This document shows positions 27,438-53,651 of a DNA stretch of 64,000 bases, piece by piece. Origin of the DNA: Escherichia coli. Its GTDB lineage: Bacteria; Pseudomonadota; Gammaproteobacteria; Enterobacterales; Enterobacteriaceae. Numbering within the stretch: the stretch's first letter is position 1; the number at the start of each line of letters is the position of its first letter. Location: assembly GCF_024700885.2 (NCBI RefSeq), contig NZ_CP117016.1. The stretch is one strand, 5' to 3'. The position numbers and the translations under genes were made by a program. The notes under the pieces are model-generated. The model did no database searches and had not been told where the DNA came from. It was given only the letters and a program-made list of their open reading frames with translations.

Positions 27438-28241
27438 TTATGCTGGCAACGGTCCGTTTTGTATAGGGACCGTTGCCTTACTTTTTAAATGTTCCATCGC
27501 GGCGATGCATACTGACTCATATTTAAACAGATCGTCAGCGAAAAAAATGACCAACTTATCAATACATTCCTGACTCAATGAATGTGCCTGTAGCGAGAAG
27601 CTTAAAACCTCATACCCGAGACGTTTTCTAAGTGAACTATCTGGAATACTCATAATATCTTCAAGCACACCATTTCCCATTCCCGGAAGATTTAGTGGAT
27701 TAAAAAGAAGACTGATATTAAGCATTGATATTATCGAAGGAAACTTTAGGAGACTCTCATTTTTTTGAATCGCAGCAAAAATGCTCCCAACAGGATGTAT
27801 ATAATTTTGTTCATAGTATATCGTTCTTAAATAGTGAATAACCAACCTGTTTTTTATATTGATCAAATTGGTCATTTTTTCTGGGCGAAATACAGAAGTG
27901 ACATCCATTCCAATAAAATCTTTATTTATACCTCTTATCCGAATTTCACTACCATAAAGATTATTAATTATTACTCTATATTTAACATTGTCCTGCAGAT
28001 ATGTATCAAAACTAAGTACTGGCGCTCCTGGCTTTGAGGCATCATAGTTAATGTTAGACATATAGGCAATCATATAATTAAAGTTTGATTCTGCTATTTC
28101 ATCGCAGGCACATTGACCCGTTGATATAAAGAAAGTGAGTGCTGTCATGGTAGACTGCAGTCTTTCTTTAAAAGAGTCGAAGGCAAGGTTTTTAATATTT
28201 AAATTACCATAATCACTCTGTATTAAGTTTGTAGAAAGCAT
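27438..28241 (-). CDS. ydjO: Uncharacterised protein YdjO
   Basis: 267-aa AT-rich ORF in the conserved position between ydjN and cedA. Confidence 0.8.
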   Translation of the reverse strand: MLSTNLIQSDYGNLNIKNLAFDSFKERLQSTMTALTFFISTGQCACDEIAESNFNYMIAYMSNINYDASKPGAPVLSFDTYLQDNVKYRVIINNLYGSEIRIRGINKDFIGMDVTSVFRPEKMTNLINIKNRLVIHYLRTIYYEQNYIHPVGSIFAAIQKNESLLKFPSIISMLNISLLFNPLNLPGMGNGVLEDIMSIPDSSLRKRLGYEVLSFSLQAHSLSQECIDKLVIFFADDLFKYESVCIAAMEHLKSKATVPIQNGPLPA

Positions 28242-28529
28242 CTCCCGCCTTATATTGTTAACAAAATTATTATCTCATTTAAATCTAAGTCATTTACAAT
28301 ATAAGTTTAAGAGCGACGCCACAGGATGAACTATCAAAAATAGCTCATCATGATTAGCAAAACTTAACCATTTTAAAATAAATAAACAATTAAAGAAAAA
28401 AGTTCACTTATTTATAGCAATAGATCGTCAAAGGCAGCTTTTTGTTACAGGTGGTTTGAATGAATGTAGCAATGAAATACAAAATTTCAGGCCATGTAAC
28501 TCCCGGCAAAACCGGGAGGTACGTAATCT

Positions 28530-40045: not shown

Positions 40046-40531
40046 TTATTCAGCAGTTGCAGGCATTTTACCTTTTGCCGCTGGACGTTCTGTCAGACGC
40101 TTCTCAAAATTAGCATTAAATTGCTTTTTCTGTTCCGGCGTCAGGATGTTGTAAATCTTGTTCTGGGTTTCCATGTGCGCCAGCATGTTAGCTTTGCGCT
40201 GTTCTTCCATTTTTGCGATCTGCGCTTCAGCTTTTGCTTTATCGAAGGTATCGCTGGCAATGATGTCATGCATTGCGCGGCGTTCTTCCAGCGGCGGACG
40301 TTTCATCTGGTCACGCTGGCCTTTCATGATTTCGCGGATCTGCTGTTTCTGCGCGTCGGTCAGGTTCAGGTCTTTGAACATCATGTCCTGATGCGGACCG
40401 AACTTGCCTTTGTGGTGCATCATCGGCTTCGCGTCAGCCGATGCTACGGTAGTGGTGTCTGCGGCATGGGCCAGGTTAGCCGCGCCAAGAGCCAGGGTAG
40501 AGGCAACAAACAGTGCAGTTAATTTACGCAT
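40046..40531 (-). CDS. spy: Periplasmic chaperone Spy
   Basis: 161 aa; signal peptide then MMHHKGKFGPHQDMMFKDLNLTDAQKQQIREIM. Confidence 0.95.
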   Translation of the reverse strand: MRKLTALFVASTLALGAANLAHAADTTTVASADAKPMMHHKGKFGPHQDMMFKDLNLTDAQKQQIREIMKGQRDQMKRPPLEERRAMHDIIASDTFDKAKAEAQIAKMEEQRKANMLAHMETQNKIYNILTPEQKKQFNANFEKRLTERPAAKGKMPATAE

Positions 40532-40860: not shown

Positions 40861-46924
<6,064 letters not shown>

Positions 46925-47333: not shown

Positions 47334-48140
47334 ATGAAATTTGTCTCTTTTAATATCAACGGCCTGCGCGCCAGACCTCACCAGCTTGAAGCCATCGTCG
47401 AAAAGCACCAACCGGATGTAATTGGCCTGCAGGAGACAAAAGTTCATGACGATATGTTTCCGCTCGAAGAGGTGGCGAAGCTCGGCTACAACGTGTTTTA
47501 TCACGGGCAGAAAGGCCATTATGGCGTGGCGCTGCTGACCAAAGAGACGCCGATTGCCGTGCGTCGCGGCTTTCCCGGTGACGACGAAGAGGCGCAGCGG
47601 CGGATTATTATGGCGGAAATCCCCTCACCGCTGGGTAATGTCACCGTGATCAACGGTTACTTCCCGCAGGGTGAAAGCCGCGACCATCCGATAAAATTCC
47701 CGGCAAAAGCGCAGTTTTATCAGAATCTGCAAAACTACCTGGAAACCGAACTCAAGCGTGAAAATCCGGTGCTGATTATGGGCGATATGAATATCAGTCC
47801 TGGCGACCTGGATATTGGCATTGGCGAAGAGAACCGTAAGCGCTGGCTGCGTACCGGAAAATGTTCTTTCCTCCCGGAGGAACGCGAATGGATGGAGAGA
47901 CTGATGAGCTGGGGGTTGGTCGATACCTTCCGCCATGCGAATCCACAAACAGCCGATCGTTTCTCATGGTTTGATTACCGCTCAAAAGGTTTTGACGATA
48001 ACCGTGGTCTGCGCATCGACCTGCTTCTCGCCAGCCAACCGCTGGCAGAATGTTGCGTAGAAACCGGCATCGACTATGAAATTCGCAGCATGGAAAAACC
48101 GTCCGATCACGCCCCCGTCTGGGCGACCTTCCGCCGCTAA
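47334..48140 (+). CDS. xthA: Exodeoxyribonuclease III
   Basis: 268 aa from [36 protein letters not shown]... Confidence 0.96.
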
Positions 48141-48306
48141 TTTAGCAGCTCTCCTGGCTCAAACTGGGTCAGGAGAATTAACCTTGAGAAAAATCAACAA
48201 ACTGTCAGTAATGATTTGTTGCCTGCCGTCCTTTGTTATACCGTCACTGCGTTTTTAGTTGTCTGACCACTTCTCTATTATCAAGTTTGATATAGGAAAC
48301 TCCACG

Positions 48307-49016
48307 ATGAACGCTGAGCGTAAATTTCTTTTTGCCTGTCTTATTTTTGCGCTGGTCATTTACGCTTTCCACGCTTTCGGTTTATTCGAGCTGCTCACCG
48401 ATTTACCTCACTTACTGACACTCATTCGCCAGAGCGGATTGTTCGGTTATAGCCTCTATATTCTGTTATTCATCATTGCCACCCTCTTTCTGTTACCAGG
48501 AAGCATACTGGTGATCGCTGGAGGAATAGTTTTGGCCCGCTCTTAGGGACACTACTATCATTAATTGCCGCCACGCTGGCCTCCTCGTGCTCATTCCTGC
48601 TGGCGCGCTGGCTGGGACGTGATTTACTGCTGAAATACGTTGGCCATAGCCATACCTTTCAGGCCATTGAAAAAGGCATTGCGCGTAACGGTATTGATTT
48701 TCTTATTCTGACCCGCTTAATCCCGTTGTTTCCTTACAATATTCAAAATTACGCTTACGGATTAACCACAATCACCTTCTGGCCTTATACCCTTATTTCG
48801 GCACTCACAACCCTGCCCGGTATTGTTATTTATACCGTGATGGCAAGCGATCTCGCCAATGAAGGCATTACGCTGCGCTTTATTTTACAACTCTGTCTGG
48901 CGGGCCTGGCGCTGTTTATTCTCGTCCAGCTCGCAAAACTCTACGCCCGACACAAACATGTGGATCTGTCTGCTTCGCGCCGCAGCCCACTTACTCACCC
49001 AAAAAATGAAGGATAG
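48307..49016 (+). pseudogene. ydjX: ydjX (DedA/TVP38 family membrane protein) interrupted by a 1-nt frameshift at ~48530-48533
   Basis: N-terminal part ends at TAG 48544-48546; the C-terminal part continues in another frame from ~48528 to 49016; total span is 710 nt. Confidence 0.65.
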
Positions 49017-49020
49017 AACG

Positions 49021-49698
49021 ATGTTGCAACATTATTCAGTGTCATGGAAAAAAGGACTGGCTGCACTCTGCTTACTGGCTGTTGCCGGGCTTAGCGGCTG
49101 CGATCAAAAAGAGAATGCTGCTGCAAAAGTGGAATACGACGGACTTTCGAACAGCCAACCGCTGCGTGTCGATGCCAATAACCATACGGTAACCATGCTG
49201 GTGCAAATTAATGGTCGTTTCCTCACCGACGACACTCGTCACGGTATTGTGTTTAAAGATGGCTCCAACGGACATAAATCGCTGTTTATGGGTTATGCGA
49301 CCCCGAAAGCATTTTATGAAGCCCTGAAAGAGGCAGGTGGTACGCCGGGCGAAAACATGACGATGGATAATAAAGAAACGACTCATGTCACAGGCAGCAA
49401 ACTGGATATTTCGGTCAACTGGCAAGGGGCGGCAAAAGCGTATTCCTTCGATGAAGTGATTGTTGACAGTAATGGTAAGAAACTGGACATGCGCTTTGGC
49501 GGTAATTTAACGGCAGCAGAAGAGAAGAAAACGGGTTGCCTGGTGTGTCTGGATAGCTGCCCGGTCGGCATCGTCAGCAATGCAACATACACTTATGGTG
49601 CGGTGGAAAAACGCGGCGAAGTGAAATTCAAAGGCAATGCCTCAGTTCTCCCGGCGGATAACACGCTGGCAACGGTTACCTTTAAAATCACCGAATAA
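49021..49698 (+). CDS. ydjY: Putative lipoprotein YdjY
   Basis: 225 aa from MLQHYSVSWKKGLAALCLLAVAGLSGC... Confidence 0.85.
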   Translation: MLQHYSVSWKKGLAALCLLAVAGLSGCDQKENAAAKVEYDGLSNSQPLRVDANNHTVTMLVQINGRFLTDDTRHGIVFKDGSNGHKSLFMGYATPKAFYEALKEAGGTPGENMTMDNKETTHVTGSKLDISVNWQGAAKAYSFDEVIVDSNGKKLDMRFGGNLTAAEEKKTGCLVCLDSCPVGIVSNATYTYGAVEKRGEVKFKGNASVLPADNTLATVTFKITE

Positions 49699-49711
49699 AG
49701 CAGGATAACGG

Positions 49712-50419
49712 ATGATGAAGATGCAATCGCGTAAAATCTGGTACTACCGTATAACCCTCATCATCCTGTTGTTCGCTGTGCTGCTGGCATGGGCGCTGCT
49801 TCCCGGCGTCCATGAGTTTATCAATCGCAGCGTTGCGGCGTTTGCCGCCGTGGACCAACAGGGTATAGAACGCTTTATTCAGTCTTACGGCGCACTAGCG
49901 GCAGTTGTCTCGTTCTTGTTGATGATTTTACAGGCCATTGCTGCACCGCTACCTGCGTTTTTGATCACCTTTGCCAATGCGTCGCTGTTTGGTGCGTTCT
50001 GGGGCGGCTTACTGTCGTGGACCAGTTCGATGGCCGGCGCGGCGCTGTGCTTTTTTATCGCCAGAGTGATGGGCCGCGAAGTGGTGGAAAAATTAACCGG
50101 CAAAACCGTACTTGACAGTATGGACGGCTTTTTCACTCGCTACGGCAAACACACCATCCTGGTATGTCGGTTATTGCCTTTTGTCCCTTTCGATCCAATC
50201 AGCTATGCTGCCGGTTTGACTTCAATACGTTTTCGCTCGTTTTTTATCGCCACCGGGCTTGGTCAGTTACCGGCAACTATTGTTTATTCCTGGGCGGGCA
50301 GCATGTTAACAGGCGGTACTTTCTGGTTTGTCACCGGACTGTTTATTCTGTTTGCCCTGACCGTGGTGATTTTTATGGCGAAGAAAATATGGCTTGAGCG
50401 CCAGAAGAGGAATGCCTGA
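49712..50419 (+). CDS. ydjZ: DedA/TVP38-family inner membrane protein YdjZ
   Basis: 235-aa membrane ORF. Confidence 0.88.
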   Translation: MMKMQSRKIWYYRITLIILLFAVLLAWALLPGVHEFINRSVAAFAAVDQQGIERFIQSYGALAAVVSFLLMILQAIAAPLPAFLITFANASLFGAFWGGLLSWTSSMAGAALCFFIARVMGREVVEKLTGKTVLDSMDGFFTRYGKHTILVCRLLPFVPFDPISYAAGLTSIRFRSFFIATGLGQLPATIVYSWAGSMLTGGTFWFVTGLFILFALTVVIFMAKKIWLERQKRNA

Positions 50420-50967
50420 TGGGTTTACCGCCGCTTAGCAAAATTCCTTTCATTTTACGTCCGCAGGCGTGGCTGCATCGTCGCCATTACGGCGAGGTGC
50501 TAAGCCCCATTCGCTGGTGGGGGCGGATCCCGTTTATCTTTTATCTGGTGTCGATGTTTGTCGGCTGGCTGGAGCGCAAACGCTCACCGCTCGATCCAGT
50601 AGTGCGATCGCTTGTCAGCGCGCGCATTGCGCAAATGTGCCTGTGTGAGTTTTGCGTGGATATCACCAGTATGAAAGTCGCCGAGCGTACCGGCAGCACC
50701 GATAAACTGCTGGCAGTGGCTGACTGGCGGCAAAGCCCGCTCTTTAGCGATGAAGAACGGCTGGCGCTGGAGTACGCCGAAGCCGCAAGCGTCACACCGC
50801 CAACGGTCGATGATGCCCTGCGTACCCGACTGGCTACCCATTTTGACGCTCAGGCACTCACCGAACTGACGGCATTGATCGGCCTGCAAAATCTGTCAGC
50901 CCGTTTTAATTCTGCCATGGACATTCCCGCTCAGGGGCTGTGCCGTATTCCTGACAAACGTTCTTAA
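50419..50967 (+). CDS. ynjA: Carboxymuconolactone decarboxylase-family protein YnjA
   Basis: 182-aa ORF; start overlaps the ydjZ stop (ATGA). Confidence 0.85.
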   Translation: MGLPPLSKIPFILRPQAWLHRRHYGEVLSPIRWWGRIPFIFYLVSMFVGWLERKRSPLDPVVRSLVSARIAQMCLCEFCVDITSMKVAERTGSTDKLLAVADWRQSPLFSDEERLALEYAEAASVTPPTVDDALRTRLATHFDAQALTELTALIGLQNLSARFNSAMDIPAQGLCRIPDKRS

Positions 50968-50976
50968 GGAGAGATG

Positions 50977-52143
50977 ATGCGCCATTGTGGGTGGTTGCTG
51001 GGATTGTTATCGCTGTTTTCTTTGGCAACACATGCCAGAGACTGGCAGGAAATCAAAAACGACGCCAAAGGGCAAACCGTCTGGTTTAACGCCTGGGGCG
51101 GCGATACCGCAATTAACCGCTATCTCGACTGGGTTAGCGGCGAGATGAAAACCCATTACGATATAAACCTGAAGATTGTTCGTCTCGCGGATGCCGCAGA
51201 CGCGGTGAAGCGCATTCAGACCGAAGCTGCTGCCGGGCGCAAAACGGGCGGCTCGGTGGATCTACTCTGGGTGAACGGCGAAAACTTCCGCACCTTAAAA
51301 GAGGCTAATTTACTGCAAACCGACTGGGCAGAGACTCTGCCCAACTGGCGCTATGTCGACACGCAGCTGCCGGTGCGGGAAGATTTTTCAGTGCCTACAG
51401 AAGGGGCTGAATCGCCCTGGGGTGGCGCACAACTGACGTTTATCGCCCGCCGCGATGTTACGCCACAGCCACCACAAACGCCGCAAGCCTTACTGGAGTT
51501 TGCTAAAGCCAATCCCGGCACGGTTACCTATCCGCGCCCACCGGACTTTACCGGCACGGCGTTTCTTGAACAGTTGCTGATTATGCTAACGCCAGATCCC
51601 ACAGCATTAAAAGAAGCGCCGGACGATGCCACTTTCGCCAGCGTCACTGCGCCCTTATGGCAATATCTTGATGCACTACATCCGTATTTGTGGCGCGAAG
51701 GAAAGGATTTCCCGCCTTCGCCCGCGCGGATGGATGCTCTGCTGAAAGCCGACACATTGCGCCTGTCACTGACCTTTAACCCCGCGCATGCGCAGCAAAA
51801 AATCGCCAGCGGCGATTTGCCTGCAAGCAGTTACAGTTTTGGTTTTCGCGAGGGAATGATTGGCAACGTGCATTTCGTCACCATTCCTGCTAACGCGAAT
51901 GCCAGTGCTGCGGCGAAGGTTGTCGCCAATTTCCTGCTCTCACCCGATGCACAACTGCGTAAAGCAGACCCTGCTGTCTGGGGCGATCCTTCGGTTCTCG
52001 ATCCGCAAAAACTGCCTGACGGGCAGCGCGAAAAATTGCAATCAAGAATGCCGCAGGATCTGCCGCCGGTACTGGCTGAACCGCACGCAGGTTGGGTAAA
52101 TGCGCTGGAACAAGAATGGCTACACCGTTACGGTACGCATTAA
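50977..52143 (+). CDS. ynjB: ABC transporter periplasmic substrate-binding protein YnjB
   Basis: 388 aa with signal peptide. Confidence 0.88.
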   Translation: MRHCGWLLGLLSLFSLATHARDWQEIKNDAKGQTVWFNAWGGDTAINRYLDWVSGEMKTHYDINLKIVRLADAADAVKRIQTEAAAGRKTGGSVDLLWVNGENFRTLKEANLLQTDWAETLPNWRYVDTQLPVREDFSVPTEGAESPWGGAQLTFIARRDVTPQPPQTPQALLEFAKANPGTVTYPRPPDFTGTAFLEQLLIMLTPDPTALKEAPDDATFASVTAPLWQYLDALHPYLWREGKDFPPSPARMDALLKADTLRLSLTFNPAHAQQKIASGDLPASSYSFGFREGMIGNVHFVTIPANANASAAAKVVANFLLSPDAQLRKADPAVWGDPSVLDPQKLPDGQREKLQSRMPQDLPPVLAEPHAGWVNALEQEWLHRYGTH

Positions 52144-53651
52144 TCTTTTTGCTGTGGGCGATGGTGGCGGTGATTTATGCACCGCTGATCCCGGCAACTC
52201 TCACGCTGATATCGCCTGCTTTGTCGTTGACACACTGGCAGGCGTTATTTGCTGACCCGCAGTTACCGCAGGCATTACTGGCAACGCTGGTGTCGACAAC
52301 CATTGCGGCGGGCGGGGCGTTGTTGATTGCCCTGCTGGTGATTGTGGCGCTGTGGCCCGGGCCGAAATGGCAGCGTATGTGCGCCCGTCTGCCGTGGCTG
52401 CTCGCCATTCCCCATGTGGCTTTTGCCACCAGCGCCCTTCTGCTCTTTGCTGACGGAGGGCTGCTTTATGACTATTTCCCATATTTCACTCCGCCAATGG
52501 ACAAATTGGGTATTGGGCTGGGCTTCACGCTGGCGGTGAAAGAAAGCGCATTTCTATTGTGGATCTTAGCGGCAGTATTGAGCGAAAAACGGCTGTTGCA
52601 GCAACTCATTGTGCTGGATTCGCTGGGCTACAGCCGCTGGCAATGCCTGAACTGGCTACTGTTGCCCTCCGTCGCGCCTGCGCTGGCAATGGCGATGCTG
52701 GCGATTGTTGCCTGGTCGCTGTCGGTCGTGGATGTGGCGATTATTCTTGGGCCAGGTAATCCACCGACGCTGGCAGTAATTAGCTGGCAGTGGTTAACTC
52801 AGGGCGAAGCCGATCAACAAACGAAAGGCGCACTCGCCAGCCTGCTGCTGATGCTGTTACTCGCCGCCTACGTTTTGCTGGGCTATCTGCTATGGCGTAG
52901 CTGGCGGCGTACTATTCCCCGCGTAGATGGCGTTCGTAAGCCTGCCACGCCTTTATTGCCTGGCATTACGCTGGCGAGTCTTTTACCCTTAACCGGTGTG
53001 CTGTGTGTGGTTCTGCTGACGATCCTCGCGGATCAGTCGACGATCAATAGTGAAGCGCTCATCAACAGCCTGACAATGGGGCTGGTGGCGACATTCATCG
53101 CTTTGCTCCTGTTACTGCTGTGGCTGGAATGGGGGCCACAGCGTCGCCAGTTGTGGCTATGGTTGCCCATTTTATTACCCGCTCTGCCACTGGTGGCGGG
53201 CCAGTACACGCTGGCGCTATGGCTAAACATGGATGGAAGCTGGACGGCGGTGGTCTGGGGGCATCTGCTGTGGGTAATGCCGTGGATGCTGTTTATCCTG
53301 CAACCCGCCTGGCAGCGCATTGATTCACGGTTAATTTTGATTGCGCAAACACTGGGCTGGTCGCAGTCCAAAATCTTCTTTTACGTGAAATGTCCGCTTA
53401 TGCTACGCCCTACGCTGATTGCCTTCGCGGTGGGATTTTCAGTCAGTATTGCACAGTATATGCCGACGCTGTGGCTGGGCGCGGGGCGTTTTCCGACGCT
53501 CACCACTGAAGCGGTGGCATTAAGCAGCGGCGGCAGCAACGGTATTCTCGCCGCCCAGGCTTTATGGCAACTGCTATTACCGCTTATTATTTTTGCCCTG
53601 ACCGCGTTAGTCGCAAAATGGGTAGGTTATGTCAGACAAGGACTCCGCTAA
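52116..53651 (+). CDS. ynjC: ABC transporter permease YnjC
   Basis: 511-aa polytopic membrane ORF. Confidence 0.88.
   Translation: MATPLRYALIFLLWAMVAVIYAPLIPATLTLISPALSLTHWQALFADPQLPQALLATLVSTTIAAGGALLIALLVIVALWPGPKWQRMCARLPWLLAIPHVAFATSALLLFADGGLLYDYFPYFTPPMDKLGIGLGFTLAVKESAFLLWILAAVLSEKRLLQQLIVLDSLGYSRWQCLNWLLLPSVAPALAMAMLAIVAWSLSVVDVAIILGPGNPPTLAVISWQWLTQGEADQQTKGALASLLLMLLLAAYVLLGYLLWRSWRRTIPRVDGVRKPATPLLPGITLASLLPLTGVLCVVLLTILADQSTINSEALINSLTMGLVATFIALLLLLLWLEWGPQRRQLWLWLPILLPALPLVAGQYTLALWLNMDGSWTAVVWGHLLWVMPWMLFILQPAWQRIDSRLILIAQTLGWSQSKIFFYVKCPLMLRPTLIAFAVGFSVSIAQYMPTLWLGAGRFPTLTTEAVALSSGGSNGILAAQALWQLLLPLIIFALTALVAKWVGYVRQGLR

Follow-up and report, generated by a model that had tools for sequence, protein, structure and literature searches.

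The ydjX gene of this Escherichia coli strain lacks a single base, and this loss is very probably a real mutation in the DNA rather than an artefact, a one-base frameshift predicted to create a null allele. The gene lies in the window, the whole stretch of 64,000 nucleotides that was analysed, where the 710-bp remnant of a 711-bp gene occupies positions 48307–49016 on the plus strand, downstream of the end of xthA at 48140. PGAP describes the same gene as 'frameshifted' in the genome NZ_CP117013.1, and it is intact in other relatives. The frameshift is thereby already known, since a public and near-identical genome carries it as a marked pseudogene, and it is of an ordinary kind.

Direct translation opens ydjX at the ATG at 48307–48309 and ends it at a premature TAG at 48544–48546 (plus strand), after 79 codons. 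This 5′ fragment (48307–48546, plus strand) comprises 75 native codons, which begin MNAERKF and run to PGSILVIAGGIV, ending in GGIV, followed by the four out-of-frame codons LARS and the stop. The remainder of the gene (48528–49016, plus strand) continues in the −1 frame from SFGPLLGTLLSLIAATLASS to SPLTHPKNEG, uninterrupted to the stop at 49014–49016, and encodes residues ~75–236, including most of the VTT domain. The two frames join at G-TTTT-GG (48529–48535), and the run of four T at 48530–48533 (plus strand), which has five T in other E. coli, is the site of the one-base deletion.

Adding one T to the run restores GGIVFGPLLG and a 236-codon gene whose product is identical to WP_001306150.1 of close relatives. 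Set against this intact ST349 protein, residues 1–75 encoded here are identical, and the out-of-frame part specifies the remaining residues without a difference. The premature stop leaves 75 of the 236 native YdjX residues. As the frameshift rests on direct comparison and not on a statistical pattern, chance is not at issue. The initial annotation had named the gene, its coordinates, the missing T and the restored length of 236 codons, and all of these proved correct on direct reading and on comparison with relatives.

E. coli MLI114 (NZ_CP117013.1) is an exact match over the 801 bases around ydjX, and the next 22 records among the matches listed show 99.9% identity, spanning 802 bases against 801 in the window. 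The match extends over the whole window, which corresponds in reverse complement to MLI114 positions 2377704–2441703 and agrees at 63,999 of 64,000 bases. In that record ydjX is NL414_RS12190, a PGAP pseudogene with the note 'frameshifted', which has the same locus, the same four-T allele and the same 710-bp extent as in the window; it is the only frameshifted CDS among the ~69 annotated in the 64 kb. MLI114 is a CTX-M-15 ST349 isolate from the stool of a soldier in Mali, and its genome was assembled by Trycycler from ONT R9.4.1 reads and polished by medaka and by Polypolish with Illumina reads (PMC10198576).

Among 3,545 complete genomes, MLI114 is the only one identical to an 80-base query centred on the T-run, and 14 other genomes among the matches listed align to this query over 81 bases. 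A ydjX match at ≥80% query coverage was found in 5,352 genomes. A 711-bp ydjX is present in 38 of 40 records sampled across the similarity ranking, the other two being MLI114 and one partial match. Strains 1190 and SW4848 carry the intact 711-bp gene (WP_001306150.1), and GTTTTTGG stands at the run in K-12, where ydjX is b1750, in O157:H7 EDL933 and in two other haplotypes. Judged by these comparisons, a single frame with five T is the normal state of ydjX. The initial annotation had held that reference ydjX genes with the same two-frame structure would contradict a loss in this strain. That structure does occur elsewhere, limited to clade-mates and sporadic recurrences, and the normal gene is intact.

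The exact 79-residue truncated product is encoded on 84 contigs from NCBI, Logan run assemblies and ENA metagenome assemblies, a count of contigs and not of independent isolates; for the same haplotype, exact-sequence look-up found at least 1,000 contigs with the intact allele. GTTTTGG was read in all four of the contigs that were fetched, namely ERR1971464, the gut metagenomes SAMN18354261 and SAMEA3360657, and the NCTC genome GCA_900450185.1; these contigs differ from the window by 0–2 SNPs over 10–20 kb. ERR1971464 and SAMEA3360657 have zero indels relative to the window over the compared span, and a scaffold gap of Ns is the sole indel-like difference in SAMN18354261. The NCTC assembly has three C-run indels besides the four-T allele. 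These are single-base changes at window positions 41832, 42640 and 55750, two of them in C5 runs. Fusing or splitting astB/astE and altering ynjF, these changes are confined to that assembly and look like PacBio-type homopolymer errors, an illustration of true assembly error in this region.

Linked variation places the deletion within a clade. A missense SNP at 40446 in spy (40046–40531, minus strand), where the window has A, produces Spy A29V, and this variant is present in all four long four-T contigs that reach spy. Spy A29V occurs in MLI114 alone among 5,423 complete genomes, and on 156 contigs of the wider collection. Both run lengths are found within the spy-A29V clade: in one member, GCA_050310915.1, the run has five T and ydjX is intact, and the extra T is the sole difference from the window in 20,485 bases. 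A further derived allele, which combines 48527 T>C with four T, was listed on 7 contigs and read on 12, from other runs and metagenomes.

The alleles appear to nest in the order ST349, spy-A29V sub-clade, four-T sub-clade and 48527-C twig, and it is because of this nesting that the four-T allele is interpreted as an inherited mutation. Spy A29V is a marker of the ST349 sub-clade in which the ydjX frameshift arose. Within ST349, the four-T allele may have a single origin or may reflect a few repeated slips, as the flanks are nearly invariant. The deletion is considered recent, because over 46 kb only 4 SNPs and the T separate the window from SW4848, a strain from a Louisiana lake, and because this base is the sole difference from the closest five-T relative over 20.5 kb. 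The initial annotation had left two readings, a recent loss of the gene and an error in sequencing the homopolymer. The comparisons decide for pseudogenisation, given the presence of the allele in many independent assemblies of one sub-lineage, and also for its recency.

An assembly or sequencing error in the homopolymer, with the strain truly having five T and an intact ydjX, was weighed as an alternative. The source assembly started from ONT R9.4.1 reads, the four-T allele is found in one complete RefSeq genome only, noisy assemblies on other haplotypes make the same four-T call beside other indels, and the NCTC assembly shows that C5 runs can acquire indels. Against this, the source assembly was polished with Illumina reads, a five-base run is short for a homopolymer error, and the 64 kb contain no second frameshifted CDS. 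Furthermore, clean contigs of the same sub-lineage, assembled from unrelated runs and metagenomes, have the identical allele and no other true indel; the allele is linked to the clade-marking spy SNP and has given rise to a derived sub-variant. Taken together, these points make an error very unlikely.

Two further observations on the assembled contigs were set aside. The SNP-rich metagenome scaffolds L010 (226 SNPs) and L014 (32 SNPs) were not accepted as evidence of spread by recombination, as they may be chimeric multi-strain assemblies. Similarly, a 16-bp difference in ydjZ in contig L007 was rejected as a sign of further operon decay, as it is a scaffold gap of Ns.

The same base has been lost on other E. 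coli backgrounds. One T was deleted in silico from the K-12-type, the O157-type and two other ydjX haplotypes, and the resulting 79-residue products were looked up; all four predicted products were found, on 20, 10, 2 and 1 contigs. When 16 of these contigs were fetched, about half showed additional indels, several per contig, along with disrupted neighbouring genes, a pattern typical of long-read data that have not been polished, and seven were clean except for a haplotypic intergenic indel at 49701. The T5 run of ydjX thus seems to be a site of recurrent slippage, and noisy data repeatedly produce an identical call there. It is because noisy data also yield a four-T call that the clean, clade-linked contigs matter for the ST349 allele.

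A separate frameshift, the deletion of one C near 48479 in GCCACCCTC, gives a 68-residue product on a haplotype that is 2.4% different and retains five T. This deletion was found on 13 contigs, mostly from human gut metagenomes of infants and adults, including PRJEB6456. Like the deletion in the window, the one-C deletion and the T5-to-T4 changes on K-12-type and O157-type backgrounds remove single bases from short homopolymers and cut YdjX short either ahead of the VTT domain or within it, with the neighbouring genes intact. They differ from it in that they arose independently on other backgrounds, and some of the contigs clearly derive from noisy assembly. Repeated independent loss of ydjX fits a dispensable gene.

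YdjX is an inner-membrane protein of the TVP38/TMEM64 type (VTT/DedA superfamily). The VTT domain (Pfam PF09335) spans residues 63–179 of the intact protein, with a score of 93.6 bits against a cut-off of 33.9, and the reading frame breaks after residue 75, inside this domain. Compared with intact YdjX, the product encoded in the window ends at 79 residues and lacks ~104 of the 117 residues of the VTT domain. Correspondingly, the 79-residue product has no Pfam match and falls outside the VTT/DedA family. The truncated gene is regarded as a null allele because nearly all of the VTT domain is gone.

Re-initiation downstream, giving a useful C-terminal fragment, was considered and rejected. The first in-frame start of the 3′ part is the TTG at 48726, which has no Shine–Dalgarno motif upstream, and the open reading frame that begins there, the best of the restart candidates, scores 24.5 bits against the VTT model, below the gathering cut-off of 33.9.

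Strand slippage while the homopolymer was being replicated is the most likely cause of the change from five to four T at 48530–48533. The shifted frame would end translation after 79 codons, yielding a product without nearly all of the DedA-type membrane domain, and hence a null allele and a young pseudogene. The deletion would have arisen inside an E. coli ST349 sub-lineage and been inherited vertically there, and the same slip would have occurred on other E. coli backgrounds as well. Loss of YdjX may be tolerated because ydjX is one of eight DedA-family genes, and because an intact VTT paralogue, ydjZ, lies two genes downstream. YdjZ (49712–50419) shares the VTT domain, over which the two proteins are 28% identical; they may be redundant, and the loss of YdjX may be neutral.

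The ydjX gene heads ydjXYZ-ynjABCD, as the initial annotation had stated, and these genes are listed as one FNR-activated operon (PMC3688515). A FNR-like box, TTGAGAAAAATCAA, with one mismatch to TTGAT-N4-ATCAA, is located upstream of ydjX at 48184–48197 (plus strand). Such boxes number 5 in the whole window against 2.65 expected, which is not above chance. The position of this box agrees with the FNR site reported for ydjXYZ-ynjABCD (PMC3688515), and the control region of the operon looks intact. The deletion was also considered as the source of a new promoter, and this was rejected: the sole σ70-like match (1 found against 2.0 expected from shuffles), at 48532–48561, begins in the T-run and has a −35 element, TTGGCC, that is the same in the five-T allele.

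The downstream genes ydjY (49021–49698), ydjZ, ynjA, ynjB, ynjC and ynjD are all intact (49021–54301, plus strand), and the accessions of their six proteins are the same as in the five-T relative SW4848. The premature stop leaves ~475 nt untranslated before the ATG of ydjY (48547–49020, plus strand). This segment contains 28.6% C and 20.0% G, and within it the 78 nt from 48737 to 48814 are C-rich and G-poor, with 25 C against 7 G. Untranslated RNA that is rich in C and poor in G is the kind of sequence that Rho uses, and Rho may act on this segment. Furthermore, translational coupling between ydjX and ydjY would be lost, because the Shine–Dalgarno motif of ydjY (AAGGA, 49009–49013) sits inside the last codons of ydjX. 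Partial, Rho-dependent polarity on ydjY–ynjD is proposed on these grounds, with about even chances that the effect would be measurable, and the influence on downstream expression that the initial annotation had raised is thus a reasonable suggestion.

Loss of YdjX could instead be non-neutral, with the T5 run a recurrent target for loss of function and with the knockout of this FNR-induced protein, or lowered expression of ydjYZ-ynjABCD by polarity, conferring a gut-associated advantage. Such an advantage is considered very unlikely; if it existed, it would explain the spread of the four-T ST349 sub-clade together with the independent hits on other lineages.

It is extremely unlikely that the run acts as a phase-variable switch, with toggling between five and four T turning ydjX, and by polarity the operon, on and off. 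The T5-to-T4 change has occurred on at least five haplotypes, and the spy-A29V clade includes five-T and four-T genomes that are otherwise identical over 20 kb. However, contingency loci use homopolymers of about seven or more bases, and the run in ydjX has five T when intact and four here, too short for high-frequency switching. The four-T allele is also rare, with 1 occurrence in 3,545 complete genomes, and the four-T state has been stable enough to gain a linked SNP common to 7–12 contigs. In a collection of such size, a dispensable gene can be expected to take occasional hits. Recoding, in which a programmed −1 ribosomal frameshift or transcriptional slippage at the T-run would give full-length YdjX, draws on the overlap of the two frames on the run just 5′ of the stop, but has next to no chance of being correct and was rejected: the 0-frame codons ATA GTT TTG GCC contain no slippery X-XXY-YYZ heptamer, folding of the 90 nt downstream is no more stable than that of shuffles (−23 against a mean of −24.96 kcal/mol, z = +0.64), four T are far below the run length for transcriptional slippage, and the two-frame form is not conserved, being confined to the one complete genome in 3,545 in a gene that is normally a single frame.

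Several other features of the window were recorded beside the frameshift. None of the best matches listed is an exact full-length match to the window. The sole difference from NZ_CP117013.1 is a SNP at 28251, which is T in the window and C in MLI114, SW4848 and the other best-matching genomes listed; it is located 10 nt upstream of the ATG of ydjO (27438–28241, minus strand), at the edge of the Shine–Dalgarno motif. Colinearity with SW4848 ends near 17719, beyond espL1, where SW4848 has a lambdoid prophage with integrase, exo and bet genes. The espL1 gene itself shows a single SNP (18343) relative to SW4848, and the protein accessions of the two are not the same. The only Rfam match at the gathering threshold is the Phe leader of pheST (14275–14399, minus strand; 74.4 bits), as expected.

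A P2-like prophage remnant extends from position 1 to ~10200, adjoining ihfA and running off the start of the window. It contains a Hok/Gef gene, ogr and a truncated gpD (VgrG/Pvc8 family), together with the genes for the sheath, the tube, the tape measure and gpU, with the gene order rearranged. An open reading frame for a hypothetical protein of 384 residues (8262–9416, minus strand) lies between ogr and gpD; it has no Pfam or PADLOC match and may be prophage cargo.

Beyond correct annotation, the ydjX frameshift matters little. For this strain and its relatives in the ST349 sub-lineage, ydjX is best regarded as a null allele and not as an assembly error to be corrected, and the four-T allele could be used as a lineage marker. 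YdjX is the bacterial counterpart, by homology, of the eukaryotic TMEM41B/TVP38 family, and the four-T strains would provide a natural YdjX knockout, with near-isogenic five-T relatives for comparison. With the same pairing, nonsense polarity could be put to a natural test in ydjXYZ-ynjABCD, an operon activated by FNR.
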